A stretch of 64,000 bases of DNA from an uncultured Candidatus Binatia bacterium (GTDB lineage: Bacteria > Desulfobacterota > Binatia > UBA9968 > CAXXLF01). This document shows positions 32,386-48,650 of the stretch, piece after piece. The stretch lies in assembly GCA_965218425.1 (NCBI GenBank), contig OZ244621.1, forward strand, positions 2,016,001-2,080,000, written 5' to 3'. Made by a program: the position numbers and the translations under genes. Under the pieces are notes generated by a model that was given only the letters and a program-made list of their open reading frames with translations, was not told where the DNA came from and did not search any database. Within the stretch, counting starts at the first letter, position 1; every line of letters starts with the position of its first letter.

Positions 32386-34977
32386 GTGAGTGAGCAGGAG
32401 AGAGTGTTGTTACCAGATGATGTCCGTCCCAAAAAATACCGGGTGACCTTAACACCCGACCTCACCCAGTGCACATTTAGCGGTAAAGTAGAGATCGAGG
32501 TGCAGATTCAAAAATCCACTTCCCGTGTCGTGCTTCATGCCGCCGAGTTGGAGCTAAAATCGGGAGAGCTTCAGCAAAACGGTGCCACACGGGTCCCTGC
32601 TAAGATTTTCCCGGACGAGAAGGCGGAAACAGCAACCTTTGAATTCGGGGACTCCCTCGCCACCGGGCCAGCCACCCTCAGTATCGATTTTACCGGCACG
32701 TTGAATGACCAGATGCGGGGGTTGTACCGCAGTGAATACCTTATGGGTGGCGAGAAGCGAACAATGGCAGTGACCCAATTTGAGGCTACCGATGCCCGCC
32801 GCGCGTTTCCCTGCTGGGATGAACCTGCCACCAAGGCCACCTTTGAGGTGACCCTGGTGGTTCCTGCGGACCGCGTGGCAATTTCCAACATGCCCATTGT
32901 GGAGACGAAGACCGGTCAAGGCGGGCTGAAGGCAGTCCGGTTTGCCGAGTCCCCTATCATGTCCACCTACCTTGTGGCGTTCATCGTCGGCGAGTTTGAC
33001 TATGTAGAGGAAAAGAGCCGGGAAGGCGCGCTGGTGCGGGTCTATACACCCCTGGGGAAAAAAGAGCAGGGCCGGTTCGCATTGGACGTCGCTAGTCGAA
33101 CCCTTTCATTCTTCGACGAATACTTCGGTATTCCATACCCGTTACCGAAGATGGACCTGATCGCCATTGCGGACTTTGCCGCGGGCGCTATGGAAAACTG
33201 GGGTGCTGTCACCTATCGAGAGACGGCGATACTCGTGGATCCGGAACAGTCTTCGGAGGCCACACGGCAGCGCGTTGCAGTGGTCATCGCCCATGAATTG
33301 GCCCACCAATGGTTTGGTAATCTCGTGACCATGGAGTGGTGGACCCACCTCTGGCTCAATGAGGGGTTTGCCTCGTGGATCGAGTATCTGGCCGTGGATC
33401 AACTCTTTCCCGAGTGGCGAATGTGGACTCAATTTGTCTACGGCGATTTGAGCCGGGCGCTGGATCTTGACGGTCTGGAGAACACCCATCCCATCGAGGT
33501 AGAGGTAAAGGACCCCAATCAAATCAGCGAGATCTTTGACGCCATTAGCTACAGTAAGGGATCGTCGGTCATTCGTATGCTGGCGGCCTATCTGGGCGAA
33601 GAGAACTTTCGCCGCGGGTTGCATGGCTACCTAAGCCGGCATCAGTACGGCAACGCTACTACCGAGGACCTATGGCAGGCCCTAGGGGAAGCTTCTGGGA
33701 AACCCGTTAAGGAGATGATGGATACATGGACCAAACAGGGAGGCTATCCGGTTCTGTCGGTGCAAGAAAAAGACGGATCTTTAAAACTCAGCCAAGCCCG
33801 TTTCTTTCTCAGTGGGATCCCACGGAAAAAGAAAGACGCAACGCGGTGGTCAATACCGGTTGGAGTTATCGGTTCCGACATGTCTCAAGAGACTTTTTCC
33901 CTCTTGGGTAAACCGTCCGGTCAAATGAGTTTAACAGGCCAGAAAAATGGCTGGGTCAAGGTCAACAATGGGCAGACGGGTTATTACCGGGTGAAATACT
34001 CGACGGCCATGATGACAGGGTTGAGTCGAGCTGTTGAAGCCATGGAGCTATCCCCTGAGGACCGTCTCGGGCTGGAAAACGATGCCTTTGCGCTGGCAAG
34101 GGCTGGCCTGCTCTCCACTCAGCATGCCCTCAATCTGGTGGCCGCTTATAAGAACGAAACGGATTACACGGTGTGGGCCGACCTCTCCGCCGGACTGGAT
34201 GAGTTGGATGCGCTGCTGTGGGGGGATCCCTGTTACGGGAACTTCGAGGCCTTTGCGAGAAGTCTCTACGGTGGTGTGGCAGGTCGAGTCGGATGGGAAA
34301 AAAAGGCAGGGGAATCTCATCTGACAACCCTTCTTCGTAGCCTGGTCATTAGTGAGCTGGGCGGGTACGGTGATGCAGAAACCATTGATGAAGCCAAGAA
34401 CCGTTTCGCATGCCTTCAAAGGGATCCCAAGAGCCTCCCTCCCGACCTGCGTTTCCCCGTCTACCGGTTGTACGTGGAAAATGGCGATGAGACTTCCCAT
34501 GAGGCGGTGCTCGATCTTTTTCGTAAGGCCGACCTGCACGAGGAGCGGCTCCGTTGCCTGCGCTCCCTGGGCTACAGCCAAAAGCAGGAATTGCTCCAGC
34601 GCACACTAGAGTTCTCCCTTTCGTCGGAAGTGCGTGCACAGGACACACCTCTGCTGGTGGGTAGCGTTGCCGCCAATGGCCCGGGTCGTGATCTCGCCTG
34701 GAATTTCCTCAAGGGGCAATGGGCCGAGTTGGACCGTCGCTACGGTAAGGGAGGTTTCCTCCTGGGCCGTGTGATCTCGTCCACCACGTCCAATTTTTGT
34801 TCCGAGGAAAAAGCCAGGGAGGTGGAGGAGTTTTTCCGTTCCCATCCGGTGCCGGCCGCTGAAAGGACCATCCGCCAGTCAGTGGAGCGTATTCGTTCCA
34901 ACGCCATGTGGCTACAGCATGACGGCAAGCCTATTCGTCAGTGGTTGGAGCGCGCGTCCGAGTCCAAAGTCCGATGA
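32386..34977 (+). CDS. pepN: M1 family Zn aminopeptidase (puromycin-sensitive/ERAP1-like C-terminal domain)
   Basis: Motifs TQFEATDARRAFPCWDEP, GAMEN, HELAH-x18-E (LWLNEG) and ISYSKG. Confidence 0.93.
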   Translation: MSEQERVLLPDDVRPKKYRVTLTPDLTQCTFSGKVEIEVQIQKSTSRVVLHAAELELKSGELQQNGATRVPAKIFPDEKAETATFEFGDSLATGPATLSIDFTGTLNDQMRGLYRSEYLMGGEKRTMAVTQFEATDARRAFPCWDEPATKATFEVTLVVPADRVAISNMPIVETKTGQGGLKAVRFAESPIMSTYLVAFIVGEFDYVEEKSREGALVRVYTPLGKKEQGRFALDVASRTLSFFDEYFGIPYPLPKMDLIAIADFAAGAMENWGAVTYRETAILVDPEQSSEATRQRVAVVIAHELAHQWFGNLVTMEWWTHLWLNEGFASWIEYLAVDQLFPEWRMWTQFVYGDLSRALDLDGLENTHPIEVEVKDPNQISEIFDAISYSKGSSVIRMLAAYLGEENFRRGLHGYLSRHQYGNATTEDLWQALGEASGKPVKEMMDTWTKQGGYPVLSVQEKDGSLKLSQARFFLSGIPRKKKDATRWSIPVGVIGSDMSQETFSLLGKPSGQMSLTGQKNGWVKVNNGQTGYYRVKYSTAMMTGLSRAVEAMELSPEDRLGLENDAFALARAGLLSTQHALNLVAAYKNETDYTVWADLSAGLDELDALLWGDPCYGNFEAFARSLYGGVAGRVGWEKKAGESHLTTLLRSLVISELGGYGDAETIDEAKNRFACLQRDPKSLPPDLRFPVYRLYVENGDETSHEAVLDLFRKADLHEERLRCLRSLGYSQKQELLQRTLEFSLSSEVRAQDTPLLVGSVAANGPGRDLAWNFLKGQWAELDRRYGKGGFLLGRVISSTTSNFCSEEKAREVEEFFRSHPVPAAERTIRQSVERIRSNAMWLQHDGKPIRQWLERASESKVR

Positions 34978-35011
34978 GTCGCAGACCGTTCGGGTTATAG
35001 GGTCAAGCGCC

Positions 35012-38000
35012 ATGCGAGTTGTTTTAGGTCCCTTCCATCCGGATTTAGAAAATGCGTTGGTGGATGAGGTCCTCGGGCATCGAAAAAAAAATCTCCTTTC
35101 CCCGCTCTTGATCTTGGTCCCATCGGATCCCCTCCTTCATCGCCTAAAGATCCTCCTGGCCCGTGAGCGCCAATTGAACCTCCTCAACGTTCACATTCTA
35201 ACCTTTTACCAGCTTTCCAGACGTTTGTTAGAGGAAAATCACCAAGCTTTGGCACTTCCGTTGCGCGACGATGCCTTTGCCGAGGAAGCCCTGAGACACA
35301 TGATTCAGACGGATTTTCAATGGGAATCGGTTTTCTCTGGAATCGAGGCAAGGGAAGGTGGTTGCGGCGCTCTCTGGCAGACACTGCGCGATCTCAAAGA
35401 CGCCAAGGTGGATTACCAACCCACTATGGATGCGTTGGCGGAAGGGTATCTTAGTTCACCGGGCGTGACGAAGCTTCGGGATCTCTTTCGACTCCATGGA
35501 GAATACTCCTCTAGCGCGCGTGATTGGGGCATTCGAGACTATACGGACCTGGATGCCTTGGCCACCGAACAAGTGCCCTCCTCTGAGTATCTCCAACAGT
35601 TTTCGGCCATTGTCTACTACGGATTTTACGACCTCACCCAGATACAGCTGGACCTCTTCCAAACCGTGGCGCGCCACTACCCTACCACGTTACTGTTCCC
35701 ACTCATCCCAGGTCATCCCGCCTGGGCATTTGCCCAGCGTTTTTACGATCGTCATGTGCAAACCCTAGTGACAGGATCCCCTGTGGTTTCCACCGCCGGC
35801 GCTGACTCTCACAACGCTTTTGCCGCTATCCATCTTCGTCTCTTTAACGAAGAGGCGCGGGAGGCTCCAGAGATGGGTGGTTCATGCACGATTGTAAACT
35901 GCTCTGGTCAGAGAGACGAGGTCCTTACCACGGCAAAGGAGATCCTCAAGCTTGTTACCCATAAGGGCCTGGCCTTTGATGAAATAGGCGTGGTGGTACG
36001 TTCCCTGGATTCTTACCTGCCTTGGTTTAAAGACATATTCACTGATCATGGGATTCCCATGGCAGGTTATGCGAAGGGATCCGTCCTTCCATTCCCGTTG
36101 GTCAAGGCGGTTGTTCTCCTCACTGGGGTGTTATCAAAAGATTACCTTCGCTCGCATGTAATGGATCTGATCTCTTCTCCTTATTTTGATCTCCGGCCCT
36201 ATTGTGGAGAGAAGGTTACCCCTAGGAGCGACCTATGGGACCCCATGACACGTCGCTTGGGAATCACCAAAGGATTCGAGTCATGGCGTCGCCTGGAGCG
36301 CTATGTGGATCGGGGAATAGCCTTGCCACGCCAGGGCGATGAGGATGAAGAGCCAAGCGTAAGATCGGTTTCCCCAGAGCAGATCAAGATCCTCTTGACC
36401 ATCGTCACTGAGCTGCATGGAGATATGGCAAAGCTGCCCGGGGAAGCGTCGTGGTCGGAGTATGCCAACCGTTGGAAGGAGCTGCTAAACAAATATCTTG
36501 GCCTTGAAAAACGTGAGACGCTCTCAGCTCCCCCTTCTCTAGAGGAGCAAATCGTTGAAGTGATCTTGGACACATTGGAGGATCTGGTGGGCCTTGACGG
36601 TCTTGCTCCCCATGTAGGCCATTTGCATTTTCTACGGACGTTTCAGCGCTGGTTAGATCGCGCCAGCGTCCCCGTAACCGAGTGGAATCTTCCCGGTGTT
36701 TCCGTGTTGGATGCCATGTCGGCGCGTGGTCTTTCCTTTCGCGCCTTGTTCATCCTGGGTCTCAACGAGGGGATCTTCCCCCGTACCATTCGAGAGGACG
36801 CCTTTCTGAGGGATGCGACGCGCAGGAGTCTGGAGACGGTATTGGGTTATAAAATCAGCGAGAAGCTAGCAGCCTATGACGAAGAAAAACTCATTCTGGC
36901 CCTTCTGGTGGGTGCGGCGCGGGAATCCCTTTACTGTTTCTACCGGCGTTCCGAGGAAGGCGGCAGGGCACTGACTCCTTCCTGGTACCTGGGTGAGATC
37001 CGGCGGGCAGTATGGGGTCCCGAAACGGTCACGGCCTCTGTTAACGAAGAGGAATGCCCAGTTCAAGAGAGAAGCATCCCGCGAGGGATACTAGAGAGGG
37101 AAAAGGTGTCTCCTTTCGATGAAGCTCAGTGGCTCACGCCCAATGAGCTTGCCGTCTGTTTGGCCCTGCAGGGGCAGGACCCTGTCCCGGTACTCAAGTT
37201 GGCGGCGCAACCGCTGGGGATCCATAGTCGCGGGTTGAGGTCCATGCAACTATTGGAGGATCCTCGCCGGTCATTGGATCAACTGGACGGAATGATCGGG
37301 CCTGTCCCTGACTACTGGCAACGCTTGTTGGAAAGGGGGATTTCACCCACCGCCTTGGAACGCTATGCGAGGTGTCCTTACCAATATTTTGCCGCCGATA
37401 TCCTTGAACTCCACGAGATGGAAAGGCCGGAGGAGGTCTCTTCTTTGGGCCCCTCGGTCATAGGCCAACTCTCTCATACGATTCTCAAGTCCCTCTACAT
37501 CCAACTTATGGAGGAAGGGTATTTCACGAGGGAGCCGTCCAAAGGCGAATGGTCGAGTCGATGGGACGAGTTAACTCACAAGGCATTCTCGGATTATGCC
37601 GCGGAAAATCCGGTGGGCTATCCGGTGGCATGGGAAGTTTTGGGGGAGGAGCTGAGTCGTCTTCTACATCAAGTAGTAGAACAGGACCTCGACGAACTGG
37701 GTGTGTCAGGATTCCGACCCATGGCCTTTGAGCCGCAATGGAGGGGACGCTTAGAAGATGGATGGCCCGATCCGTTGGGTCGTCTCCCCATTGTGGGTTC
37801 GCCGGACCGGGTGGACTATGAACCATCAAAGTCACGCTATCGGGTAATCGATTACAAGCTTCGGATGGGAAAACGGGAATCGGCAGAAGATCACAATCTC
37901 CTTCAATCCGCCCTCAGGGGTAAGCGACTCCAGCTTCCCCTCTACATCCTTTTGGCGGCGCAGCATGCTCAGGCCGGGAAAAGAGGCAAGATACCGGCCA

Positions 38001-38317
38001 AAATTCACGGGGCTTTTTATCTGATCGCACCGCGCTGGCTGAACGGGCCGCTGGCTATTGAAGAGTTCCCTGAAAAGGGCTGGGATGATCCGTACAAGGA
38101 AAGACTCCAGGAAACCCTGGGATTTCTCCTAAAGGGAATTCAGCAGGGTCGATTTTTTATTTCTCCCGGTGATCATTGCAGAAACTGTGACGTGAGAGCG
38201 GCCTGCCGTAGAAATCACCGACCTTCACTTTGGCGTGCCGAAAAAGACCCGGCGGTGAGGTCCCATGGTGAATTGAATGAACAGAAAGCGGCGCTCACGC
38301 AAGGGAGACGCGGGTGA
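35012..38317 (+). CDS. addB: AddB/RexB-like inactive-helicase + PD-(D/E)XK nuclease subunit with Fe-S staple
   Basis: ARGLSF..LFILGLNEGIFP, SPTALERYARCP, G.PDRVD...VIDYK and HCRNCDVRAAC. Coupled to addA. Confidence 0.82.
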   Translation: MRVVLGPFHPDLENALVDEVLGHRKKNLLSPLLILVPSDPLLHRLKILLARERQLNLLNVHILTFYQLSRRLLEENHQALALPLRDDAFAEEALRHMIQTDFQWESVFSGIEAREGGCGALWQTLRDLKDAKVDYQPTMDALAEGYLSSPGVTKLRDLFRLHGEYSSSARDWGIRDYTDLDALATEQVPSSEYLQQFSAIVYYGFYDLTQIQLDLFQTVARHYPTTLLFPLIPGHPAWAFAQRFYDRHVQTLVTGSPVVSTAGADSHNAFAAIHLRLFNEEAREAPEMGGSCTIVNCSGQRDEVLTTAKEILKLVTHKGLAFDEIGVVVRSLDSYLPWFKDIFTDHGIPMAGYAKGSVLPFPLVKAVVLLTGVLSKDYLRSHVMDLISSPYFDLRPYCGEKVTPRSDLWDPMTRRLGITKGFESWRRLERYVDRGIALPRQGDEDEEPSVRSVSPEQIKILLTIVTELHGDMAKLPGEASWSEYANRWKELLNKYLGLEKRETLSAPPSLEEQIVEVILDTLEDLVGLDGLAPHVGHLHFLRTFQRWLDRASVPVTEWNLPGVSVLDAMSARGLSFRALFILGLNEGIFPRTIREDAFLRDATRRSLETVLGYKISEKLAAYDEEKLILALLVGAARESLYCFYRRSEEGGRALTPSWYLGEIRRAVWGPETVTASVNEEECPVQERSIPRGILEREKVSPFDEAQWLTPNELAVCLALQGQDPVPVLKLAAQPLGIHSRGLRSMQLLEDPRRSLDQLDGMIGPVPDYWQRLLERGISPTALERYARCPYQYFAADILELHEMERPEEVSSLGPSVIGQLSHTILKSLYIQLMEEGYFTREPSKGEWSSRWDELTHKAFSDYAAENPVGYPVAWEVLGEELSRLLHQVVEQDLDELGVSGFRPMAFEPQWRGRLEDGWPDPLGRLPIVGSPDRVDYEPSKSRYRVIDYKLRMGKRESAEDHNLLQSALRGKRLQLPLYILLAAQHAQAGKRGKIPAKIHGAFYLIAPRWLNGPLAIEEFPEKGWDDPYKERLQETLGFLLKGIQQGRFFISPGDHCRNCDVRAACRRNHRPSLWRAEKDPAVRSHGELNEQKAALTQGRRG

Positions 38318-41300
38318 TGTCAAGCGGTTTAGCCGACGGATTGGAACGCCAACGGGCCGCCACCACTTTCGACCAGAATATTGTCGTTACGGCAGGTGCC
38401 GGTACAGGAAAGACAGCCTTGCTGGTGAATCGACTGGTTCATCTCTTGATGCGCTCGCCTGACCCTGTGAAAGTGGACGAGCTTGTGGCTTTGACGTTTA
38501 CCAATAAAGCCGCCGACGAGATGAAAATCCGCTTGCGCCGGCGTCTCCGAGCCTATGGTGCCGTCAGACTTGATCAGGAACCTCTAGATACAAACCAAGC
38601 GGAGGTACATCGAGAAGTCCAGGGTTTTATGGAACGCTACCACCTGGGAAAAAAGGAGATCGACGGTCGCGCCAAGGAAGCGCTTCGTCATCTAGAGCGG
38701 AGCGAAATCGGCACTATCCATAGTTTTGCGTCTAGCCTCCTTCGACTGTACCCCCTTGAGGCGGGACTGGACCCACAGTTCGGCGAGGATGACGGGGCTG
38801 GTTTTGAAAGGCATTTTGACGAAAGCTGGAATCTCTGGCTCGACCGTGAGCTTTCTTCCCGGGGACCCCATAGGGAATCCTGGAAGGAGTTGCTGCGGAA
38901 GCTCCCTCTTGAGCGTATCCGTGAGCTGGCCTATGGATTGAGTCCGGAGACTGTGGACCTCCCTCGACTGGTCCAGCTAGTGCAGGGTCAAAAAGAACTC
39001 CAGTTGCATAGAACCTGGTTAAAAGACCTGGAACAAAAGGCCTCACGCCTCATAGAACGACATCCTGGGAATCGATCCGTTGAACAACAGGTGCGGGCTT
39101 CCAGACAAATGATTCGTGAGTTTTGCGCGCGGGGATCCGTTGGCTCCGGCGTCCTAGAGGCGGAAAGGGAACTCCTTGCCTCCGGAAAACCCATTACAGG
39201 TACAGGTCCCAAGGGTTGGAGTGAAGAGGAGGTGGAAGAGGCCAGGGGGTTGATTCGAGTGGCGCGTTGCCTGATGGGCATCGATCGGCAACTCTTGGGG
39301 CTTCTTTGTGATCTTGTGATCCCCTTTGTGGGGAGTTGCCGTGAGACTTTTGTCAGGGCCGGATTTATTTCATTCGATGGTTTGCTGGTGCGGGCAAGGC
39401 AGCTGTTGCGGCAACACCCGGAGATCCGGGAAGAGCTCAAGGGGCGGTTCAAGGCGATCTTGGTGGACGAGTTTCAAGATACGGATCCGATCCAGTGCGA
39501 GGTCCTGCTCTACCTGGCTGAAAAGAAGGGACAACAGGCTCAAGACTGGCGCAAGATCAGGCTAGAGCCGGGAAAGCTTTTTGTAGTGGGTGACCCAAAG
39601 CAGTCCATCTATGCCTTTCGGCGTGCCGACATCGAGGCCCATCTGCGCGTTGTTCGTGATGTCATACAAAAACAGAACGGCATCGAGTGTACTCTAACGA
39701 CAAGTTTTAGAAGTCATGAAGGGATTCTGGACGTGGTGAACGGCGTCTTCGCTCGTCTCATTCAAGCGCGTGAGACACTTCAGCCCCCCTATGCGTCGAT
39801 TCATCCGTTGGAGGAACCCGTGAGGGAAACAGCGGACCATCCATCGACACAGCTTCGCCATGTGGAGATGCGCAGAGTTGAAAGTGATGAGAATCTAAAC
39901 GCCGCCGCCGCGCGCCGTCTGGAGGGGGAGTCCCTCGCCCGCTGGCTTGCCGAAGAGGTTCTGGATAAAGCCGTGATCGTCCATAAGAATCAGACCCCGG
40001 TGCCGGCCAAGGCGGGACACGTGGCTATATTGATGCGCTCGCTGGTTAACGTGGACCAGTATCTGGAACCGCTGCGCAGGCGGGGAATTCCCTTTGTGGT
40101 GGAGGGTGAAAAGCACTTTTACGCCACGCAGGAAGTGATCGACATGGTGAGCCTGCTCCGTGCCATCGAAAATCCCTACGACCGACTGGCATTGGCGGGG
40201 GTGCTTCGGTCTCCACTGGGGGGACTCAACGACCGAGAGCTCTATGAACTCCACCAGCAGGGGCTCTTGGATTATCGTGCGGTGGCCTGGCCCAAGGGGC
40301 TACCCAAAAAAGGCGTTGCCTTCCGAGTCCGGGGTCTCTATCCCGTTCTTCTTCGACTCCATCGTGAGACTCGCCTGCTTTCCGTGGGAGACGCGGTAGG
40401 TGAAATCTTTGGCTCGCTGCCTGTGATGGTATTGGCCGCCAGTTCCCACCATGGGGAGCAGCGAGTAGCCAACCTAGAAAAGGTTCGTCTTCTGGCGGAG
40501 GAAATGGGACGGGAGGGACCGGCGACGTTGAAGGCGGTTATTGCCGCCTTAGAAGAGCGGGTGTCTGAGATGCAAGAGGAAAGTGAAAGCAGTCTCGTCG
40601 AAGAAGGCGTGAATGCGGTGAAGATCCTGAGCGTCCATAAGGCCAAAGGACTGGAGTTCCCGCTGGTGATCCTGGCCGGTTGCCAGGCGGGGGTGAACCG
40701 CCTGGCAAGTGAGCCCGTGGAGGTTTACCATGACTGGTCCACTGACCTGGTGGGTCTCCATGTGGATGAACTGTGGAGTCTGTCGGGGATTTTCCTTGAT
40801 GGAAAGAAAAGGCTCCGTGAACAGGAAGAGCAAAAAAGGGTATTCTATGTGGCTGCAACCCGTGCCCGCGAGCACTTGACTCTTTCCTGTGCCGCGACGA
40901 AGAGAAGGACACCCGGGAGCTTTCTATCTCTGCTGGAGGAGGCCACAGGGGAGATCCAGTCAGCCGCCGGGTCGAGAACCTTGAGTGCTGGTGCTGGCAA
41001 GATCAAGTTGCAAAGCCCACGGGAATCGCTAGAGCCGCCGGGCTCCGTTGATAGCGGGTCCAAGAACAAAGCAATGGAGTTCGACAGCGGGAGCTACGAA
41101 AAGTCGGTTCAGCAACGGCAAAAACGGTACCAGGAAACCATGGAGACCCCCCTCATTGTCAATCCCACCTTGCTCAAGAGAATGGAGCAAGACATATGGG
41201 ATCAGGACCCTCATGGCCGCAATGATCGTGGACTGAACGAGGAGGCCCTCCTCATAGGTGAGTTGGCCCACGGATTTCTTCAATGTTGGGATTTCTCCCA

Positions 41301-41778
41301 GGACCATCCGTATTCTCGTGATCACCTCTTATCTTTCCTAGACCGAAGTCTCCTTCAGCGTGGTGACCATGATCACCTGTCCGTTCAGAGGGAGCTTGAA
41401 GAGATATTTCATGTGTTTTTCAATTCCTCCGCTTACCAGGAGCTTAAAAGCTCTCACATCCTTGGACGGGAGCTTCCCCTGTTGATTCCCTGGGGGAATC
41501 AGATCATGGAGGGGGTCATGGACGTGCTCTACGAAAGAGAAGGCGAGCTCTACGTTGCAGATTACAAGACCGATCGTGTCCAGGGTCGGGATCTCACCCA
41601 GGTAGTGCATTCCTATGGCCACCAGGCCCGCATTTACAGTGAAGCCGTTCACCGCTGTATGCAGAGGGATGTAGTCGAATTTAAAATCGTTTTATTGCGA
41701 TTGGGAAAGGCAATTCCGATAAAAATAGAAACAGGGTCCTCGGTCTACGCAACACAAGAAGACAAGGAGGGAGTATGA
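38314..41778 (+). CDS. addA: AddA-like UvrD/SF1 helicase + RecB-type nuclease
   Basis: AGAGTGKT, LTFTNKAA, VDEFQDT, VGDPKQSIYAFRRA, HKAKGLEF, YVAATRA and GVMD...ADYKT. Confidence 0.9.
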   Translation: MMSSGLADGLERQRAATTFDQNIVVTAGAGTGKTALLVNRLVHLLMRSPDPVKVDELVALTFTNKAADEMKIRLRRRLRAYGAVRLDQEPLDTNQAEVHREVQGFMERYHLGKKEIDGRAKEALRHLERSEIGTIHSFASSLLRLYPLEAGLDPQFGEDDGAGFERHFDESWNLWLDRELSSRGPHRESWKELLRKLPLERIRELAYGLSPETVDLPRLVQLVQGQKELQLHRTWLKDLEQKASRLIERHPGNRSVEQQVRASRQMIREFCARGSVGSGVLEAERELLASGKPITGTGPKGWSEEEVEEARGLIRVARCLMGIDRQLLGLLCDLVIPFVGSCRETFVRAGFISFDGLLVRARQLLRQHPEIREELKGRFKAILVDEFQDTDPIQCEVLLYLAEKKGQQAQDWRKIRLEPGKLFVVGDPKQSIYAFRRADIEAHLRVVRDVIQKQNGIECTLTTSFRSHEGILDVVNGVFARLIQARETLQPPYASIHPLEEPVRETADHPSTQLRHVEMRRVESDENLNAAAARRLEGESLARWLAEEVLDKAVIVHKNQTPVPAKAGHVAILMRSLVNVDQYLEPLRRRGIPFVVEGEKHFYATQEVIDMVSLLRAIENPYDRLALAGVLRSPLGGLNDRELYELHQQGLLDYRAVAWPKGLPKKGVAFRVRGLYPVLLRLHRETRLLSVGDAVGEIFGSLPVMVLAASSHHGEQRVANLEKVRLLAEEMGREGPATLKAVIAALEERVSEMQEESESSLVEEGVNAVKILSVHKAKGLEFPLVILAGCQAGVNRLASEPVEVYHDWSTDLVGLHVDELWSLSGIFLDGKKRLREQEEQKRVFYVAATRAREHLTLSCAATKRRTPGSFLSLLEEATGEIQSAAGSRTLSAGAGKIKLQSPRESLEPPGSVDSGSKNKAMEFDSGSYEKSVQQRQKRYQETMETPLIVNPTLLKRMEQDIWDQDPHGRNDRGLNEEALLIGELAHGFLQCWDFSQDHPYSRDHLLSFLDRSLLQRGDHDHLSVQRELEEIFHVFFNSSAYQELKSSHILGRELPLLIPWGNQIMEGVMDVLYEREGELYVADYKTDRVQGRDLTQVVHSYGHQARIYSEAVHRCMQRDVVEFKIVLLRLGKAIPIKIETGSSVYATQEDKEGV

Positions 41779-42029
41779 AGCTTTCGGTTAAATCTTTGAC
41801 CATCACATCAGCCGTCCTGTGGGGAGGCGTATGTCTGTTCGTCGCCCTGCTCAACGTCATTTGGCCCGGTTATGGCAAGGCCTTTCTCGATGTCATCGGT
41901 TCCATCTATCCGGGATACGAGGTAACGGGGTCCCTAGGTAGTGTCATTGTGGGTACTCTCTACGCCACGTTGGATGGGGCCGTGGGCGGCGCCCTATTTG
42001 GCTGGATCTATAACTTCTTTGCCAATTGA
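41775..42029 (+). CDS. Small two-TM membrane protein
   Basis: Hydrophobic 84-aa ORF with SIYPGY loop, AGGAGG RBS and ATGA coupling to addA. Confidence 0.75.
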   Translation: MKLSVKSLTITSAVLWGGVCLFVALLNVIWPGYGKAFLDVIGSIYPGYEVTGSLGSVIVGTLYATLDGAVGGALFGWIYNFFAN

Positions 42030-42216
42030 AAGTTGGTTTTACAGCTAACGGCGGTAGTGTGACCGACGCCGCAAATCGATATCGGGAGCCACCCAGTTTA
42101 AGCGACATGGTCGTTCGGACTGACGGAACCGAAAGGTCCGAGCTAACGTCTTTTCAACTTCGGCGGGCCGGGGAAATTGGGTTGCCTTTTGATCCATCAA
42201 TAGTCTAAACTCGGCC

Positions 42217-42651
42217 GTGATGAACTTGCCGTTTTTGACCCGCTACAGTACAAGCCTCTGGATTCGGTTTCTCCGCTTCAACCTCCACTCCGGTAAGAAG
42301 CTCCAGGAGGATCTGGAGAAACAGGGACTCACCCCCCCGCAGTTTTATGTTCTGGCGACCATTGGCTATCTGGGAGGAGTCCCCTTTAACGAAATTGGTG
42401 CAAAAATGATGGTGACGGTGAGTAACCTGACAGGCATCGTGGACCGGCTGGAAGAAAAGGGAATCGTGGCCAGGGAGCGGGATAAACACGACCGTAGAGT
42501 GATCCACGTCAAACTTACAGAGAAGGGGAAGAAACTCTACAAGGTCTCCGTTGTTACTTTTGAAAATAGCGTGTCGAAATTCTTTTCCCCTCTAGATAGA
42601 TCCCAGCAAAAAGAGCTTTCCACCCTTTTGCGTAAATTGCTCGGCGCCTGA
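42217..42651 (+). CDS. MarR family transcriptional regulator
   Basis: GLTPPQFYVL, NLTGIVDRLEEKG and DRR...LTEKG. Confidence 0.93.
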   Translation: MMNLPFLTRYSTSLWIRFLRFNLHSGKKLQEDLEKQGLTPPQFYVLATIGYLGGVPFNEIGAKMMVTVSNLTGIVDRLEEKGIVARERDKHDRRVIHVKLTEKGKKLYKVSVVTFENSVSKFFSPLDRSQQKELSTLLRKLLGA

Positions 42652-42679
42652 GACGACTCCTGCCCATAGGTTCCCATTG

Positions 42680-42732
42680 TTGACAATTGGTTAAAGGTCA
42701 AATAGTTTATATGTGATTATTTAACACGTTAA
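42680..42732 (+). promoter_or_regulatory. Sigma70 promoter plus palindromic operator candidate for the phosphorylase operon
   Basis: TTGACA (42680)-N17-TAGTTT (42703). Palindrome TTAAC-AC-GTTAA at 42721-42732 just downstream. Confidence 0.6.
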
Positions 42733-42854
42733 CCTATGGTCAGTGAGGCATGAATCTCCTTGATCCTGTAGTGAGGGAGGCCGTTAATTGAATTCCTTCA
42801 TGACGTTGCTACGGACGTAAGTTAATAATTTTTATACTAAGACGGTATAAAAAG

Positions 42855-43592
42855 ATGCGCAAAGAACCTCATTTTACGCCGGAGAGCTTGCTCAGTCGGA
42901 TCAATTTTAAGCCTGGAAGTCTGGGAACAATGGCACTCATACCCGGTCCGAAGGAGCGGGCCAAGATGCTGCTCGAAAATCTGGAGAATCCTTGTAAGAG
43001 CTTTACTTTCTTGGATCATGAGATGCATACGGGTTCGTGCAACGGGAAACGGGTGACCGTGGGAAATGGTGGGCGCTATGCGGCTGACACGGCCATCACA
43101 ACGGAACTACTCTGTGCAGGCGGTGTTGAATCGCTCATTCGAATAGGCAGCTGTGGAGCCTTGAATAGGAATGTGAAGATTGGTGACCTTGTCATCGTGA
43201 CAGGAGCCATTCGCGGTGAAGGCACATCGCCCTATTACGTGCCGCAAAATTTTTCAACTGTCCCCCATCCGGAAATCGTCCAGGTGCTGACTGAAGCCGC
43301 CAAAGCATTTGAGGTCACGACACACCTGGGCTGGGTGTATACAACAGATGCTTTGTTTCAAGAAACTCCGGAGCTCATGGACGGATTGGAGCGGCAGGGC
43401 ATCTCTGCCATTGATATGGTTACGTCATCTTTTCTCACCGTCGCTCAAGTTCGTAACAAAAAGGCGGGTGCCATCATGGCTGTTTCCGACGAGTGTTTCA
43501 GCGGGAACTATGGATTTCGCGACCCACGTTTTATCGATGCGGAAAACAAGATGATGGATGTGGCCTTCAAGGCCATCCAACTCATGAGTTGA
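42855..43592 (+). CDS. Nucleoside phosphorylase (PNP/UDP_1, DeoD/Udp-like)
   Basis: Motifs IPGPKERA, IRIGSCGAL, AIRGEGTS, TTDALF and AVSD. Confidence 0.88.
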   Translation: MRKEPHFTPESLLSRINFKPGSLGTMALIPGPKERAKMLLENLENPCKSFTFLDHEMHTGSCNGKRVTVGNGGRYAADTAITTELLCAGGVESLIRIGSCGALNRNVKIGDLVIVTGAIRGEGTSPYYVPQNFSTVPHPEIVQVLTEAAKAFEVTTHLGWVYTTDALFQETPELMDGLERQGISAIDMVTSSFLTVAQVRNKKAGAIMAVSDECFSGNYGFRDPRFIDAENKMMDVAFKAIQLMS

Positions 43593-43598
43593 CACCCC

Positions 43599-45107
43599 AT
43601 GGAGCAAAAAAGCCCGTTGTTCGCACCGGTGATCTGGGAAGGCGATCACTTCAGGATACTGGACGAGACCCTTCTCCCTTGGGAAACACAATACGTTACG
43701 GTAAACGAGGTGAGCCAGGCCATTGGCGCCGTGAAGGAGATGAAGACGCGGGCATTTGGCCAGGTGTTAACTTTTCTTTACTCTGCCGCTTTGATGGCGC
43801 GAACCACGAAGGAACGAATCCCCGAAGAGCTTGGAGGCCGCCTCAAAGAATTAGCCAATCGATTTTCGGAAGCTCGCCCGACCTTTAACTTTAAAAGGCA
43901 TACCGTCTTCTTTGATGAGTGCTTGAAAGAATTCCCCGCTGGTGAGGAGGTGGGGACCTGGTTGGAAAACAAGATCCATGAACGGATCGCAACGATTCTT
44001 AAGGCCAGAGACGGTAGAGCGAAGAGGGTTGCCCAATTGCTACCCAGTTCCTGTCGGCTCATGACCCATTGCAATATCAGCGGTGAGCTGGTGGCCATAG
44101 GCGAGTACTGCAAAGCCATGGGAAAGGATTTTAATGTTATTGCGACGGAAACCCGACCCTATCTTCAAGGGTCCCGGCTGACCGCTTGGGAACTGGCTCA
44201 GTCCGGCATTGGCGTGAAATTGATCCCTGACTGTGCCACTGCGCAGGTCATGTCCAAAGGGGAGGTAGATGCGGTGCTTGTGGGTTCAGATCGATGCGCG
44301 CAAAACGGTGATATCGTCAATAAGGTGGGAACCTATCCCCTTGCCTTGATGGCGAAGGAATACGGTATCCCGTTTTACGCGCTGGTCCAGGATCCTGGCC
44401 ATTTACCCGCGGGTAGATATGTTTCCATTGAAGAGCGACCCGTGGCCGAGTTGCTTAACTTCCAGGGTCGTTCCATTACTCTCGAAGGGGTCCGGGGAAG
44501 ATATCCTGCCTTTGATGTAACCCCTGCGGTTCTCATCTCCTATATGATCCGTTATGACGGAGTCTACACACCCGCGAGCTTTAGGGAGAAGTTTCAGCAA
44601 GGCTCTTCAGAAGGGGGAATTGAAACGAGGGGCAAAAAGCGGCTAGTCATCGTTTACGGTGTCCCGCGCAGCGATGACTATGCCCAGCTTTCCCACACCC
44701 TCAGGGATGAACAGGCGGATGGTTTTTTAATACCCGAAATGCGCCCCCAACTTTGGGGGGCCCAGGAGGTTGCACGAGAACTCATACAACGGGGAATGTC
44801 CACCACCCTGATCTCAGATAATATGATGGGTATCTTCTTTGCCCAGAAAGAAATTCGATGTGTTTATCTCTTTTATCAAAAGCTTGATGAGATAGGACCG
44901 GTGGGAATTTGTGGATCTTTGCTGACCGCACGTCTTGCGCAGGTTCACGAAATACCCGTAAAGTTGCTCAGATCTGGAGAGACCCAACAGCGGCCATTGG
45001 ACGACACCGTGACCACTTTTGTGGGGAAACGGGTTTGCCCGGAAGGAGTATCGCCTTATCCCATTGAGAAAGAAAGGATACCCTGGGCCCTGTTAAAGAA
45101 TACTTGA
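43599..45107 (+). CDS. MtnA/eIF2B-family sugar-1-phosphate isomerase with a C-terminal duplicated domain
   Basis: ILDETLLP, ARPT, THCN, ETRPYLQGSRLTAWEL, GSDR..NGD..NKVGTY and FDVTP, plus about 160 extra residues. Confidence 0.85.
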   Translation: MEQKSPLFAPVIWEGDHFRILDETLLPWETQYVTVNEVSQAIGAVKEMKTRAFGQVLTFLYSAALMARTTKERIPEELGGRLKELANRFSEARPTFNFKRHTVFFDECLKEFPAGEEVGTWLENKIHERIATILKARDGRAKRVAQLLPSSCRLMTHCNISGELVAIGEYCKAMGKDFNVIATETRPYLQGSRLTAWELAQSGIGVKLIPDCATAQVMSKGEVDAVLVGSDRCAQNGDIVNKVGTYPLALMAKEYGIPFYALVQDPGHLPAGRYVSIEERPVAELLNFQGRSITLEGVRGRYPAFDVTPAVLISYMIRYDGVYTPASFREKFQQGSSEGGIETRGKKRLVIVYGVPRSDDYAQLSHTLRDEQADGFLIPEMRPQLWGAQEVARELIQRGMSTTLISDNMMGIFFAQKEIRCVYLFYQKLDEIGPVGICGSLLTARLAQVHEIPVKLLRSGETQQRPLDDTVTTFVGKRVCPEGVSPYPIEKERIPWALLKNT

Positions 45108-45125
45108 AGCGGGGCTATCGTATTG

Positions 45126-45716
45126 ATGAACACTATAGAGCGTGACATCATTTATTGGGGGCGAAGCCTTTATGAGCGCAAGCTCATCACCGGTTGGGGC
45201 GGCAATATCAGCCGGCGTATGGGCAAGAATCGTTTCTTAATCACAGGAAGAAATTCCCCGCTGGGGTTTTTGACGCCAAAGGACCTGGTGGAGATCAATG
45301 GAGAAGGTGCGCCGGTGAAAAAGATTCAGACACCTTCCAGCGAATCTCCCCTTCACCTGGCGGTCTACAAAGAAACGGACGCCATGGCGGTGATCCACGT
45401 CCATCCACCCACCATCGTGGTGTTTTCTCTTGCTAACGAAAGCTTCATTCCCTTGAGTTGGGAGGAGAGGTACATCCTTAAGGAAATCCCCGTTGTGCCC
45501 CAGCACACCCCTACCGTGAAGGACCCGACTCAAGTGGTGGAAGTGATACGCAACCGCCCCATCGTCATCCTGAAAGGCCACGGGACGATTGCTCGAGGAA
45601 AGGATCTTAGGGATGCCTTTCTTCTGACCGATCTACTGGAGGGCGCGATCCACTGCCAGTTTTTGAAAGACGGGATGTCCTCGGAGGAACAGGGTTCTAT
45701 TGGGAAACAAGGTTAA
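45126..45716 (+). CDS. Class II aldolase (FucA/adducin family)
   Basis: GGNIS, PSSE..LH, HVHP and LKGHG (Zn ligands). Confidence 0.9.
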   Translation: MNTIERDIIYWGRSLYERKLITGWGGNISRRMGKNRFLITGRNSPLGFLTPKDLVEINGEGAPVKKIQTPSSESPLHLAVYKETDAMAVIHVHPPTIVVFSLANESFIPLSWEERYILKEIPVVPQHTPTVKDPTQVVEVIRNRPIVILKGHGTIARGKDLRDAFLLTDLLEGAIHCQFLKDGMSSEEQGSIGKQG

Positions 45717-45734
45717 TTGAGGGAGGATTTTACC

Positions 45735-47267
45735 ATGGCGATTGATTCCAACCAAGCGGGATTTTTTGTTGGAGAAATATTAGAGCATACTGCCAAGCGA
45801 TACCCGGACAAGACCGCATTGATTGCCAAGGAGGGGGAGTTGACCTTCTCGCAGGTGAATGAGAAAGCCAGTTGGATCGCAGGTCATCTGCAGGCGGAAG
45901 GGATCAAGCCGGGCGACCGTGTCGGTTTGTTCCTGCTCAACTCCATTGCCTTTGCCCTCTGCTACTACGCGATCCAAAGGATTGGAGCGGTCTCCGTAGT
46001 CTTGGATGCACGTCTAAAGGGAAAAGAGCTTTCCGGGGTTCTGCAGGATGCCGACCTGAATCTTTGTATTACCCACCAGCGTCTCATGCCTGAGATCTCG
46101 CCCATTGTGGCGGAGCTAAAAAAGGTCCCACTATGGGCGGTTGAGGGTGAAGGAGAGCAAGCGTTTGAAAAAAGACTATCGGCGCCACCAAAGAATCTTG
46201 TGCAGACCAAGATTACTCCCGACCAAGACGCGGTGATTCTTTACACCTCGGGGACCACAGGAGAGCCCAAAGGGGTGCTGTTGAGTTACGTTAACTTGAC
46301 TCAATTCCCCTATTGTATGGGCCAGGTTTGGAAGACCGACGAGAAGACCGTCTTGGGCTGCGTCCTCCCCATGTCACATATCTCGGGTCCCATCTACTGC
46401 AATGAGATCATCGACAAGGGAAGTACCATGGTCATCTTCGACCAGATGAATCCCATGACCCTATTGGAAGGAATTCAAAAGCACCGGGTCACCTTCTTCC
46501 ATGGCATCCCTATAATCTTCCAGCTCCTCTTAGGTGTCCCCAATCTGAAATCCTATGACACCAGCAGCGTTGAGATCGTTGGCATGATGGGAATGTCGGT
46601 CCCGTTGCCGCTCATGCGTGCCTTCAAGGGCGCACAACCTCACATTAAAGCGATGCAGGGTTACGGTCTCACGGAAACTTCGCCTCTGATAACGGGCACT
46701 GAAATTCCAGACGCGGATCAAAAACTGGGCAGCATCGGTAAACCGGTTCCTGGAATTGAAGTAAGGATCATCAATGAAAAAGGTGATGACGTAGGTGAGG
46801 GAGAGGAAGGAGAGATTATTACTCGGGGTCCACATGTGATGAAAGGGTACTTCCGCAAAGCCGACGCCTCAGCGGAGAGAATACGCAAAGGGTGGCTCTA
46901 CACCGGCGATATCGCAAGGCGCGAAGGGGACGGCTATTTTTATCACCTGGGAAGAAAGGACGACATGATCATTACCGGGGGGATGAACGTCTATCCGGCC
47001 GATGTTGAGAACATATTGTATGAATTCCCACAGGTGCAGGAGGCAGTGGTTTTTCCCATTCCGGAGCCCAAGAGAGGAAACGTCATTGGAGCGGCCGTGG
47101 TGCCGCGCCAGGGACAGTCCCCAAATGCAAAAGAGATTCTTGCCTATTTGCGTTCGAATCTGGCGGCTTTTAAGGTGCCTCAAGAGGTGAAGATCCGTGA
47201 GTCCCTGCCCCGAACCTCCACCGGCAAAGTCATTCGAGATGCCTCCGTGCTGCTCTCGGACGGCTAG
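45735..47267 (+). CDS. AMP-forming acyl-CoA ligase (FadD-like)
   Basis: YTSGTTGEPKG, GYGLTE, LYTGD, GRKDDMI and PRTSTGK. GGAGG RBS. Confidence 0.93.
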   Translation: MAIDSNQAGFFVGEILEHTAKRYPDKTALIAKEGELTFSQVNEKASWIAGHLQAEGIKPGDRVGLFLLNSIAFALCYYAIQRIGAVSVVLDARLKGKELSGVLQDADLNLCITHQRLMPEISPIVAELKKVPLWAVEGEGEQAFEKRLSAPPKNLVQTKITPDQDAVILYTSGTTGEPKGVLLSYVNLTQFPYCMGQVWKTDEKTVLGCVLPMSHISGPIYCNEIIDKGSTMVIFDQMNPMTLLEGIQKHRVTFFHGIPIIFQLLLGVPNLKSYDTSSVEIVGMMGMSVPLPLMRAFKGAQPHIKAMQGYGLTETSPLITGTEIPDADQKLGSIGKPVPGIEVRIINEKGDDVGEGEEGEIITRGPHVMKGYFRKADASAERIRKGWLYTGDIARREGDGYFYHLGRKDDMIITGGMNVYPADVENILYEFPQVQEAVVFPIPEPKRGNVIGAAVVPRQGQSPNAKEILAYLRSNLAAFKVPQEVKIRESLPRTSTGKVIRDASVLLSDG

Positions 47268-47424
47268 GGGCGTTCAGTTGCTTCGAAGGGACTTGATGAG
47301 CCGAAGGAGAGACTTTTCGTGTAACCAAATTGGGTCATGGTAGAACGGAGTCGGATAGATAATGCTGTCTATCTATATGGATGCCCCGCGAACGTATACA
47401 CGAGTCGGCTCGATGGCTGGTTAC

Positions 47425-47624: not shown

Positions 47625-48650
47625 TTACAGGGGAGGCTTTGATTCCGGGGAGGGAGATTCATCCTGCGAGGTGTTAACGAGTGCTCTTCGTCTCAAACGT
47701 GCGACCTTTTCGCGCGGTTCCCTGATATTCTCGCGGATGCCAAGCCAATTCCATTGATCCGGATACTGACGAACCATCTTCTCCAGGTGGCCTGAAAACA
47801 GGGTTACATTGGCCGTCACATCCTCCCGTAAAGCTCCCGTCTGCTGAAGTTGAAATTCAGGACTAATCTGCAGGGTCAGCCGGTTCTCTTGGTCACGGGT
47901 CATAAACATCGGTAAGAGTGATGCGCCAGCGCGCATGGCTAAAGTCACCGGACCTCGTGGGACAGGAAAACGCTGGCCAAATATCTCCACTTCGGGTCCA
48001 CTGGTTTTCAACTCGTCCGCAATCATGAGGACCACTTCATTTGCTTTTAATGCTCTAAGTACCTCTTGAACCGCCTGCCTGCGGGGCCGTGCCGAGATGG
48101 TTTTGATCCTTACCCGATGGCGGAGATCGTCCATCAAACGAGCAAACCCCTGATCCTTTGATTGCTTCACCACCACATTGAATGGGTATCCTTCCGCTTC
48201 GAGACGGGTACCGATCAATGTAAAGGTTCCCAGATGAGCGCTCAGCGCGATGACTCCCTTCTTTTTTTCCAGAGCTCGTTTTAGGTGTTTCTCTCCCACA
48301 AGGGTAACCGTAGAGCGAATCCTCTCTTTGGGGGCATCAATAGCCATGGCCGTTTCTTGAATTCCCCGGGCAAAGTTCCGCCATGCCTTGCGCACTAGTT
48401 CTTTTCTCTCCTTTCCGGTTGGAAACTCTTTACTCATGACAATGGAAAGATTTTGTTCCATTCGCTTTGGGTATTTCCAAAGAAGATGGGCTGTAAGGTT
48501 GGCCCCAACTCGAATGAATGTAGATAGAACGCTTTGCGGGGTCCAGGGGAGTAGCCGAACAAACCCCCTTACAAAGAATTCCCCTATTCGATATCGCAAC
48601 CAATAGGAATAATTTCGCAGCCCTTTTTTGATTTTAGTGGGTTGGGCCAT
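47625..48650 (-). CDS. Lipid A acyltransferase (LpxL/HtrB family)
   Basis: GVIALSAHLG, ALKANEVVLMIAD and YPDQWNW. Confidence 0.85.
   Translation of the reverse strand: MAQPTKIKKGLRNYSYWLRYRIGEFFVRGFVRLLPWTPQSVLSTFIRVGANLTAHLLWKYPKRMEQNLSIVMSKEFPTGKERKELVRKAWRNFARGIQETAMAIDAPKERIRSTVTLVGEKHLKRALEKKKGVIALSAHLGTFTLIGTRLEAEGYPFNVVVKQSKDQGFARLMDDLRHRVRIKTISARPRRQAVQEVLRALKANEVVLMIADELKTSGPEVEIFGQRFPVPRGPVTLAMRAGASLLPMFMTRDQENRLTLQISPEFQLQQTGALREDVTANVTLFSGHLEKMVRQYPDQWNWLGIRENIREPREKVARLRRRALVNTSQDESPSPESKPPL

Follow-up and report, generated by a model that had tools for sequence, protein, structure and literature searches.

We have analysed an operon in a 64-kb window (the whole stretch of DNA examined, 64,000 nt of contig OZ244621.1) from an uncultured Candidatus Binatia bacterium, in which a marR-family gene is followed by genes for a nucleoside phosphorylase, an MtnA-like isomerase, a class II aldolase and an acyl-CoA ligase. 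A sequence-only reading had taken these genes for a stand-alone catabolic operon acting on a nucleoside from outside the cell. Comparison with relatives argues against this, as the module is tied to one family of B12-dependent radical S-adenosylmethionine (rSAM) enzymes, and the best explanation of the sequence comparisons is that the operon would form the trimming half of a two-part pathway under one MarR. The features of the locus are the following.

42217..42651, + strand: marR-family repressor gene (PF01047, E 1e-16)
42680..42708, + strand: sigma70-type promoter, TTGACA (42680-85)-N17-TAGTTT (42703-08), read from the sequence
42702-42721: second, weaker operator site (9.6 bits), overlapping the promoter -10
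42717..42736, unstranded: palindromic operator, from a matrix of 28 relatives' promoters, family consensus ATAGTTAA-N4-TTAACTAT
42855..43592, + strand: nucleoside phosphorylase, hexameric type (DeoD/Udp fold), forming a distinct subfamily, 245 aa (Pfam PNP_UDP_1)
43599..45107, + strand: MtnA-like isomerase with a second C-domain, 502 aa (Pfam IF-2B, two stretches)
45126..45716, + strand: class II aldolase, 196 aa from ATG (Pfam Aldolase_II, PF00596)
45735..47267, + strand: acyl-CoA/acyl-ACP (acyl carrier protein) ligase of the ANL family, 510 aa from ATG (Pfam AMP-binding and AMP-binding_C)

The arrangement originally described, four close co-oriented genes behind a promoter and a palindrome next to marR, is confirmed by the open reading frames (ORFs), the sequence and the operator matrix. 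The four enzyme genes are separated by gaps of 6, 18 and 18 nt, and none of the five ORFs is disrupted, their catalytic residues being retained; an alternative TTG start at 45717 would extend the ligase to 516 aa. The promoter is absent from the list of a consensus scanner, its -10 fitting only 3 of 6 positions. Positions 42100-47400 are present in a single contig, with zero differences, in three public runs which are possibly the source of this assembly; unless they are, this identity indicates that the short aldolase described below is not an assembly error. One identical 291-nt contig in one RNA run is too little to show expression. Named close homologues are Ca. Binatia proteins.

Conservation was followed in 61 genomes of the order, 33 belonging to families f1 and f2 and 28 to family f3, and in the best 80 of at least 599 loci matched in a genome-contig scan. 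Thirty-two of these loci are Binatia-type, with a fused isomerase, and 48 are distant, originating from metagenome-assembled genomes labelled Omnitrophota, Planctomycetota and deltaproteobacteria and from one Methanosarcinales bin; 34 of the distant loci are at least 11 kb long. The isomerase family is encoded in 31 of the 33 f1 and f2 genomes (28 near full length, 3 fragments) and in none of the 28 f3 genomes, the two f1 and f2 genomes lacking it being 78% and 87% complete. Within the Binatia-type loci, aldolase is present in all 32, ligase in 30, phosphorylase in 29, marR in 28 and a CCG/4Fe-4S oxidoreductase in 27, and both loci without ligase stop at contig edges. The expectation that the ligase travels with the core genes is thus upheld by this gene-neighbourhood comparison, with ligase orthologues in 27 of the 61 genomes and 0 of 28 in f3, the family without the operon. 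The 34 long distant loci all encode an aldolase-SCP2 fusion and an aldehyde dehydrogenase (ALDH), and they include B12-rSAM in 29, phosphorylase in 27, polyketide synthase (PKS) genes in 25, ligase in 19 and a separate gene for the isomerase C-domain in 15. Of the 13 distant loci in which the phosphorylase gene is missing, 8 (L100, L112, L115, L117, L118, L124, L134 and L140) have a class IV aminotransferase-like gene in its place, immediately before the isomerase.

To judge from their aligned sequences, the phosphorylase and the isomerase are remodelled around the ribose family-wide. The phosphorylase does not match the MTAP model and matches DeoD/Udp models below their cut-offs, consistent with its earlier designation as DeoD/Udp-type rather than MtnP-type. 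Using a residue numbering which we take to be that of E. coli DeoD, DMV replaces the ribose-binding EME in the window, in 62/62 relatives and in 7/7 further ones, no equivalent of the conserved Arg43 or of His4 is found, and the Phe159 position is Leu or Ile, while equivalents of Gly20, Arg24, Arg87, Ser/Thr90, Met180 and Asp204 are retained. The glutamate of E-M-E and the second-subunit Arg and His that characterise DeoD/Udp hexameric enzymes are therefore lacking. Arg74 was considered as a stand-in for the lost phosphate-binding Arg43 and was dropped, since the alignment places it at the Met64/Val66 position and several relatives have Met or Leu there. In PfPNP, Glu184 is reported to contact the hydroxyls at 2' and 3', with the 5' pocket lined by His7 and Tyr160, and the Arg45Ala variant is nearly inactive (PMC3885546). 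A canonical MTAP (TIGR01694, above cut-off) and a canonical MtnA are encoded elsewhere in the genome, so plain salvage is already covered. The HpnG model scores 30 bits against the phosphorylase with a cut-off of 187, and a hopanoid reading, adenosylhopane trimming by HpnH/HpnG, was rejected, squalene-hopene cyclase (TIGR01507) being unmatched in the genome itself.

Residues 1-335 of the isomerase are MtnA-like and retain the catalytic Cys158 and Asp231 and the phosphate-binding Arg51, Arg93 and Lys242; Cys158, Asp231 and Lys242 are each conserved in 80/80 and Arg51 in 78/80. The motif RA[F/V/Y]GQ, RAFGQ in the window, replaces RGAPA in 78/80, and a loop of 7 residues that the canonical MtnA of this genome possesses is deleted, as it also is in the genome's R15Pi-like paralogue. 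The changed motif and the loop presumably line the methylthio pocket. Scores remain under the MtnA cut-offs (260.6 vs 271 and 229 vs 279), and the best fold match of the isomerase model is B. subtilis MtnA (Z 27.6). The domain duplication noted from the sequence is verified by self-BLAST (E 2e-6), by hhalign (99.2%) and by alignment of model residues 370-501 with the yeast MtnA C-domain (1w2w_B; Z 11.6, rmsd 2.2, 122 aa). Thus, the extra ~160 residues (aa ~345-502) constitute a second, non-catalytic MtnA C-domain, which is a separate gene in distant relatives. R15Pi, a member of the same family, is reported to dimerise via its C-domains (PMC5789824), and the additional domain therefore probably replaces the partner subunit, forming a pseudo-dimer, as the fold likeness and a pTM of 0.84 for the model of the whole isomerase also suggest.

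The aldolase has the catalytic Glu and three metal-binding His of its class, Glu73, His91, His93 and His152 being shared by the window's enzyme and 74-75 of 76 relatives. An SCP2-like tail is fused to 75 of the 76 relatives' aldolases, the 76th being split, and this tail points to a hydrophobic substrate moiety, R, in what would be the ancestral system. The tail is missing throughout the window's genus, in which the CCG Fe-S oxidoreductase gene is also missing from the operon, and a six-frame search of this genome gave no homologue of the tail; this genome thus keeps a reduced version of the system without it. The short aldolase and the missing Fe-S gene are visible from relatives only and lay beyond the view of the sequence-only reading. 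The ligase resembles FadD and feruloyl-CoA synthetase, the latter being its nearest solved structure, scores under every curated cut-off shown and forms its own orthologous clade. In a tree built by a quick method and containing long branches, Binatia ligases group with one deltaproteobacterial ligase, and orthology of the Binatia and Omnitrophota ligases is not supported.

The B12-rSAM partner family is linked to the module in cis in distant phyla and in trans, via a common operator, in Binatia. It forms one clade (45 rows, support 99, FastTree with two outgroups) with a B12 domain and a CxxxCxxC motif invariant in 60 aligned members. The member in this genome, C1:13927-15393, is 41-43% identical to distant members. 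Its distribution in the order parallels that of the isomerase, with 31/33 f1 and f2 genomes and 0/28 f3 genomes encoding the family. Co-loss is observed in G002 (97% complete, 2 contigs), from which rSAM, aldolase and ligase are gone and whose operon ends inside the isomerase; at L058:8000-11800 the isomerase is broken, a deletion runs through aldolase and ligase, marR is divergent and the promoter is retained. In a sample of 200 genomes of the phylum, the rSAM family was detected in 11 (E<1e-110) and the module isomerase in 10 of these. Five of the 11 matched the window isomerase at E<1e-60, as no other genome did, and five more were matched with an Omnitrophota isomerase query; isomerase absences in this sample are weak evidence because the E<1e-60 threshold missed half. 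In 7 of these 10 genomes at most a few genes separate rSAM from the module, and G088 carries marR, ligase and rSAM in a single run, its MarR and ligase best matching those of the window (reciprocally for MarR). Distant genomes that were checked have 4-9 B12-rSAM matches each, and the module is linked to one clade only.

In most Binatia, one rSAM paralogue heads a gene run continuing with a short-chain dehydrogenase/reductase (SDR), a GlcD-like FAD oxidase, a haem-oxygenase-like protein and an O-methyltransferase, in several genomes beside TonB-type uptake genes, and the CCG protein of the operon may have this GlcD-like oxidase as its partner. The present lineage is without close orthologues of the FAD oxidase and the O-methyltransferase, and its rSAM gene is followed by a tripartite ATP-independent periplasmic (TRAP) transporter gene. 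An ALDH gene behind the rSAM gene of G001 was not counted as support, as it encodes a 2-hydroxymuconic semialdehyde dehydrogenase. The best NCBIfam match of the rSAM family is BchE (TIGR02026), two members scoring 207-209 bits vs a cut-off of 481, and a bacteriochlorophyll reading was rejected with the score so far under the cut-off; the gene context is one of nucleoside trimming and PKS, not of tetrapyrroles. A bchE homologue has been reported in Binatota (PMC8262859).

Reduction in this lineage raises the improbable alternative that the operon here is a decaying remnant of an ancestral pathway with a narrowed function or none. The losses of the Fe-S gene, the SCP2 tail and the close oxidase and O-methyltransferase orthologues would fit such decay, as would the broken operon of G002, a member of the same family, and a deletion at C1:2340400-2340515 which, by comparison with G001 (L179:7851-11098), took out one rSAM paralogue together with the greater part of a UbiD gene. 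Decay is at odds with the five intact ORFs and their catalytic residues, with isomerase and ligase identities of 88% and 94% between G001 and the window, and with the retention of a genus-level rSAM paralogue with its operator site. An operator-like site is left at the deletion junction.

The operator was defined with a matrix trained solely on the operon promoters of 28 relatives, in which a -35/-10 pair (22/28 by pattern), placed as in the window, and then the palindrome are found downstream of marR. The window site scores 14.8 bits, the top site of the 64-kb window and rank 6 in the genome. Upstream regions of rSAM genes score well with the same matrix: 33 of 37 distinct ones exceed the top score among their 30 shuffles, the highest-scoring site of an entire locus (12-19.5 kb) lies at most 150 nt from the rSAM start in 19 of 20 loci, and 12 bits are reached by 1 of 145 control upstream regions. 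Whole-genome pattern searches gave 3-4 matches in G035, G037, G043 and G059, in each case including the operon and rSAM promoters. The deltaproteobacterial genome G065, in which a MarR homologue is encoded beside the module, has tandem sites before the module and before a lone rSAM gene. The matrix is uninformative in AT-rich distant genomes, and when this genome was scanned throughout, its remaining high-ranking sites indicated no coherent genes. Combined, these comparisons suggest that the operon and the unlinked B12-rSAM genes probably form one regulon with MarR as its probable regulator; the action of MarR on the palindrome, proposed previously, agrees with conservation of the operator in relatives, and binding is predicted on that basis. 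Operator-like sites also occur 50-80 nt from UbiD-family genes at L224:9362-10859 (G037), L225:7997-9496 and L226:8303-11022 (both G035), which is weak evidence as each genome contains ~60-75 UbiD matches.

The distant clusters encode a complete type II PKS set, consisting of ketosynthase (KS), chain length factor (CLF), ACP, START aromatase, PF04199 cyclase and SDR. Cys is present in 11/11 KS rows, and the matching position is Arg or Lys in 7/7 CLF rows; among five further CLFs it is Arg or Lys in four and Gly in one. The CLF ActI-ORFII is described as having Gln at this position for starter decarboxylation (PMC6638757). KS-CLF pairs of Omnitrophica have been catalogued, in the portion of that work available without mention of this context (PMC10132072). 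MMPL, LolA-like and DUF1302 genes lie beside the module in some deltaproteobacterial clusters. A small conserved protein of ~85-90 aa, with no NCBIfam match, is encoded between the rSAM or ligase gene and a ketopantoate-reductase-like gene in PKS clusters (L199:16071-16343, L201:2899-3150 and L255:8734-8997). At L241:1902-6648 (G201) and L248:2624-7412 (G262), the PKS operon is followed by a glycyl radical enzyme, its activase and an rSAM enzyme of the same clade; this glycyl radical enzyme belongs to no curated subfamily, and related models include arylacetate decarboxylases. An LsrF-like thiolase and a Zn-dependent dehydrogenase occur as a pair with the module in 6 of the 34 long distant loci (L100, L116, L125, L137, L140 and L205), with homologues in this genome at C1:864818-866751 that are 54% and 62% identical. 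If a ribulose-1-phosphate were oxidised at C4, LsrF-type thiolysis would directly yield dihydroxyacetone phosphate (DHAP) and an acyl-CoA. Such a route could possibly bypass aldolase, ALDH and ligase.

This wider context bears on a version of the original proposal, that the operon degrades a modified nucleoside of outside origin with a carboxylic acid as its base or 5' fragment, that the acid's CoA ester induces the operon through MarR and that the rSAM has no biosynthetic role. Control by MarR, the TRAP transporter gene behind this genome's rSAM gene, the operator-like sites before UbiD-family genes in G037 and G035 and the failure of a PKS aromatase query, run without a positive control, to find a match in any of the 61 Binatia genomes are all in keeping with it. 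Nevertheless, no Binatia operon contains a nucleoside transporter, the other fixed member of the regulon is an rSAM gene, often leading into the SDR, FAD oxidase, haem-oxygenase-like and O-methyltransferase genes, and in distant phyla the module lies inside a type II PKS cluster. We consider this explanation quite unlikely.

The reading that best accommodates the observations, and which we hold at about even confidence, is that the rSAM enzyme C-adenosylates an acceptor and that the operon strips off adenine and DHAP, so that acceptor-CH2-COOH is left to be activated. Gene content, co-occurrence, co-loss, the shared operator and the residue changes are the evidence directly obtained; the reactions are predicted. 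The B12-rSAM enzyme would join the adenosyl C5' to the acceptor R, giving R-CH2-ribosyl-adenine. By homology and retained catalytic residues, the phosphorylase would then free adenine, the isomerase would yield R-ribulose-1-phosphate and the aldolase would cleave this to DHAP and R-CH2-CHO. An aldehyde oxidoreductase would produce R-CH2-COOH, a role that would fall to ALDH in distant clusters, to an unlinked enzyme here and, in most Binatia, probably to the CCG Fe-S protein, and the ligase would convert the acid to a CoA or ACP thioester. The net effect would be that R gains a carboxymethyl group with C5'-C4' of ribose as its source. In anaerobes with a PKS, the thioester would act as primer of the type II PKS, in which the CLF lacks the starter-making Gln. 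Thus, of the two origins suggested earlier for the acid, the 5' fragment is retained, because an aldehyde oxidoreductase accompanies the module in nearly all relatives, and the base is given up; the accompanying suggestion of a substrate other than 5'-deoxyadenosine (5'-dAdo) or methylthioadenosine is probably correct.

Adenosyl transfer, followed by trimming that leaves X-CH2-CHO and then an acid, is also the course of the Streptomyces cattleya fluorometabolite route. There, 5'-fluoro-dAdo is reported to be converted to DHAP and fluoroacetaldehyde by the same phosphorylase, isomerase and aldolase logic (PMC6079011). X is fluoride in that route, introduced by polar substitution, whereas here the partner is a B12-rSAM enzyme and X would probably be carbon and hydrophobic. 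The sinefungin enzyme SinC, which the partner resembles in its B12-binding and radical SAM architecture, is described as C-adenosylating arginine from adenosylcobalamin through a C-C bond to adenosine C5'; sinefungin, in contrast, retains the adenosine, and its cluster contains a cobalamin adenosyltransferase (10.64898/2026.05.21.726688). Adenosylation by ArsS is a further reported precedent (PMC13598754).

The DHAP shunt, or 5-deoxyribose salvage (MtnP or MtnN with MtnK/DrdK; MtnA/DrdI; Ald2/DrdA), likewise brings together in a single operon a phosphorylase and an MtnA-like isomerase as well as a class II aldolase, paralogues of methionine-salvage enzymes with DHAP and an aldehyde as expected products (PMC6079011 and PMC12632272), and the DHAP-shunt-like logic recognised at the outset is supported. 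There are several differences. The operon encodes a hexameric-fold DMV phosphorylase, not an MTAP, and an isomerase with an altered motif, a deleted loop and a dead C-domain; relatives have an aldolase-SCP2 fusion; a fixed oxidoreductase and ligase and an obligate link to one B12-rSAM family are added, and the regulator is a MarR, not the DeoR-type MtnR. Neither the MtnP-type phosphorylase nor the nucleosidase plus kinase of a DHAP shunt is found, the operon having no kinase gene. Thus, the operon would work like a DHAP shunt but is not classed as one.

A number of observations weigh against adenosylation followed by trimming. The genomes and loci counted are kin and so not independent. The operon is present in G007 (96% complete, 260 contigs) without any match to the rSAM family, and in G087, which does encode the rSAM, no phosphorylase was matched; the phosphorylase gene is missing in-locus from 13 of the 48 distant loci and the ligase from 15 of the 34 long ones. 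Whole-genome pattern match counts are no higher than those of a reversed-pattern control, G039 gave 10 matches of which neither the operon nor the rSAM site was one (within 3 mismatches), and the operator before this genome's rSAM gene is moderate (12.0 bits, rank 45). Even adenine release is insecure, as the phosphorylase has no equivalent of an arginine whose loss is crippling in PfPNP (PMC3885546). The argument for a hydrophobic substrate covers relatives only, the window's genus having neither SCP2 tail nor Fe-S gene. No motif was found that separates adenosylating from methylating or oxidising B12-rSAM enzymes, and most members of this class are presumed methylases (PMC13142503). A cobalamin adenosyltransferase gene, present in the sinefungin cluster, was not noticed in the clusters, for which no systematic search was made. 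Finally, co-regulation and co-location are equally expected if the operon cleans up a by-product.

Such a clean-up is the substance of the main alternative, dedicated salvage, in which the co-regulated B12-rSAM enzyme would release much 5'-dAdo (and S-adenosylhomocysteine) and the operon would convert the 5'-dAdo to adenine, DHAP and acetaldehyde, and the latter via acetate to acetyl-CoA or acetyl-ACP, also serving as PKS primer. It accounts equally well for the linkage in cis and in trans and for the common operator, and the lost His4 equivalent suits a 5'-deoxy substrate. Known DHAP shunts run the first three steps on 5'-dAdo as paralogues beside the canonical set (PMC6079011), and the ligase AntG has been proposed to load ACP in an acetyl-primed type II PKS with a CLF without Gln (PMC6638757). 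Salvage leaves unexplained the SCP2 tail (75/76), the family-wide remodelling of the isomerase and a ligase of FadD/feruloyl rather than Acs type. The module accompanies only one clade in distant genomes with 4-9 B12-rSAM matches, and canonical MtnP, canonical MtnA and many class II aldolases are already encoded in this genome. We therefore judge salvage a credible but rather unlikely explanation. If it were true, the operon would still represent a new oxidative, ligase-terminated variant of the DHAP shunt, of modest interest.

Returning to C-adenosylation followed by trimming, a broader generalisation, to which we give somewhat less than even confidence, is that it constitutes a widespread, mostly anaerobic strategy of C-H carboxymethylation. 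A B12-rSAM enzyme would attach adenosine as a cap to an inert acceptor, hydrophobic or aromatic, and repurposed salvage enzymes would then pare this down to an acid arm of two carbons, with adenine and DHAP recycled. In Omnitrophota and part of the Desulfobacterota, the activated acid would serve as primer for a type II PKS, with possible MMPL/LolA-like export, and in Binatia it would feed a MarR regulon with O-methyltransferase, oxidase and UbiD, whose product may be a cofactor, quinone or envelope lipid not yet described. The literature searched, in which subscription papers were mostly uncovered, gave no description of this system. If correct, adenosine would be a removable two-carbon donor for C-C bonds at unactivated carbon. 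This would be new enzymology for the B12-rSAM enzymes, a large and mostly unassigned class, and might offer biocatalytic access to aryl- or alkyl-acetyl thioesters. Genes now mis-annotated as bchE and mtnA in several lineages of uncultured bacteria would also gain a function, and a conserved type II PKS of small-genome anaerobes would become more approachable.

Genes flanking the operon include, upstream, a helicase-nuclease pair at 34919-41778, which we take to be AddAB-like, followed at 41775-42029 (+) by a gene for an 84-aa membrane protein that lies outside the operon and weakly matches holin_4 (57 bits against a cut-off of 70). Downstream, a gene for a lipid A/PIM-type acyltransferase (PF03279) at 47625-48650 (-) is convergent to the ligase gene. 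The same arrangement is found in G003, a PF03279 remnant lies at this position in G002, and in one distant genome the acyltransferase gene is co-oriented directly behind the ligase (L252:15073-15972, G176). This acyltransferase is a possible acceptor step for the activated acid, or its position is due to chance.

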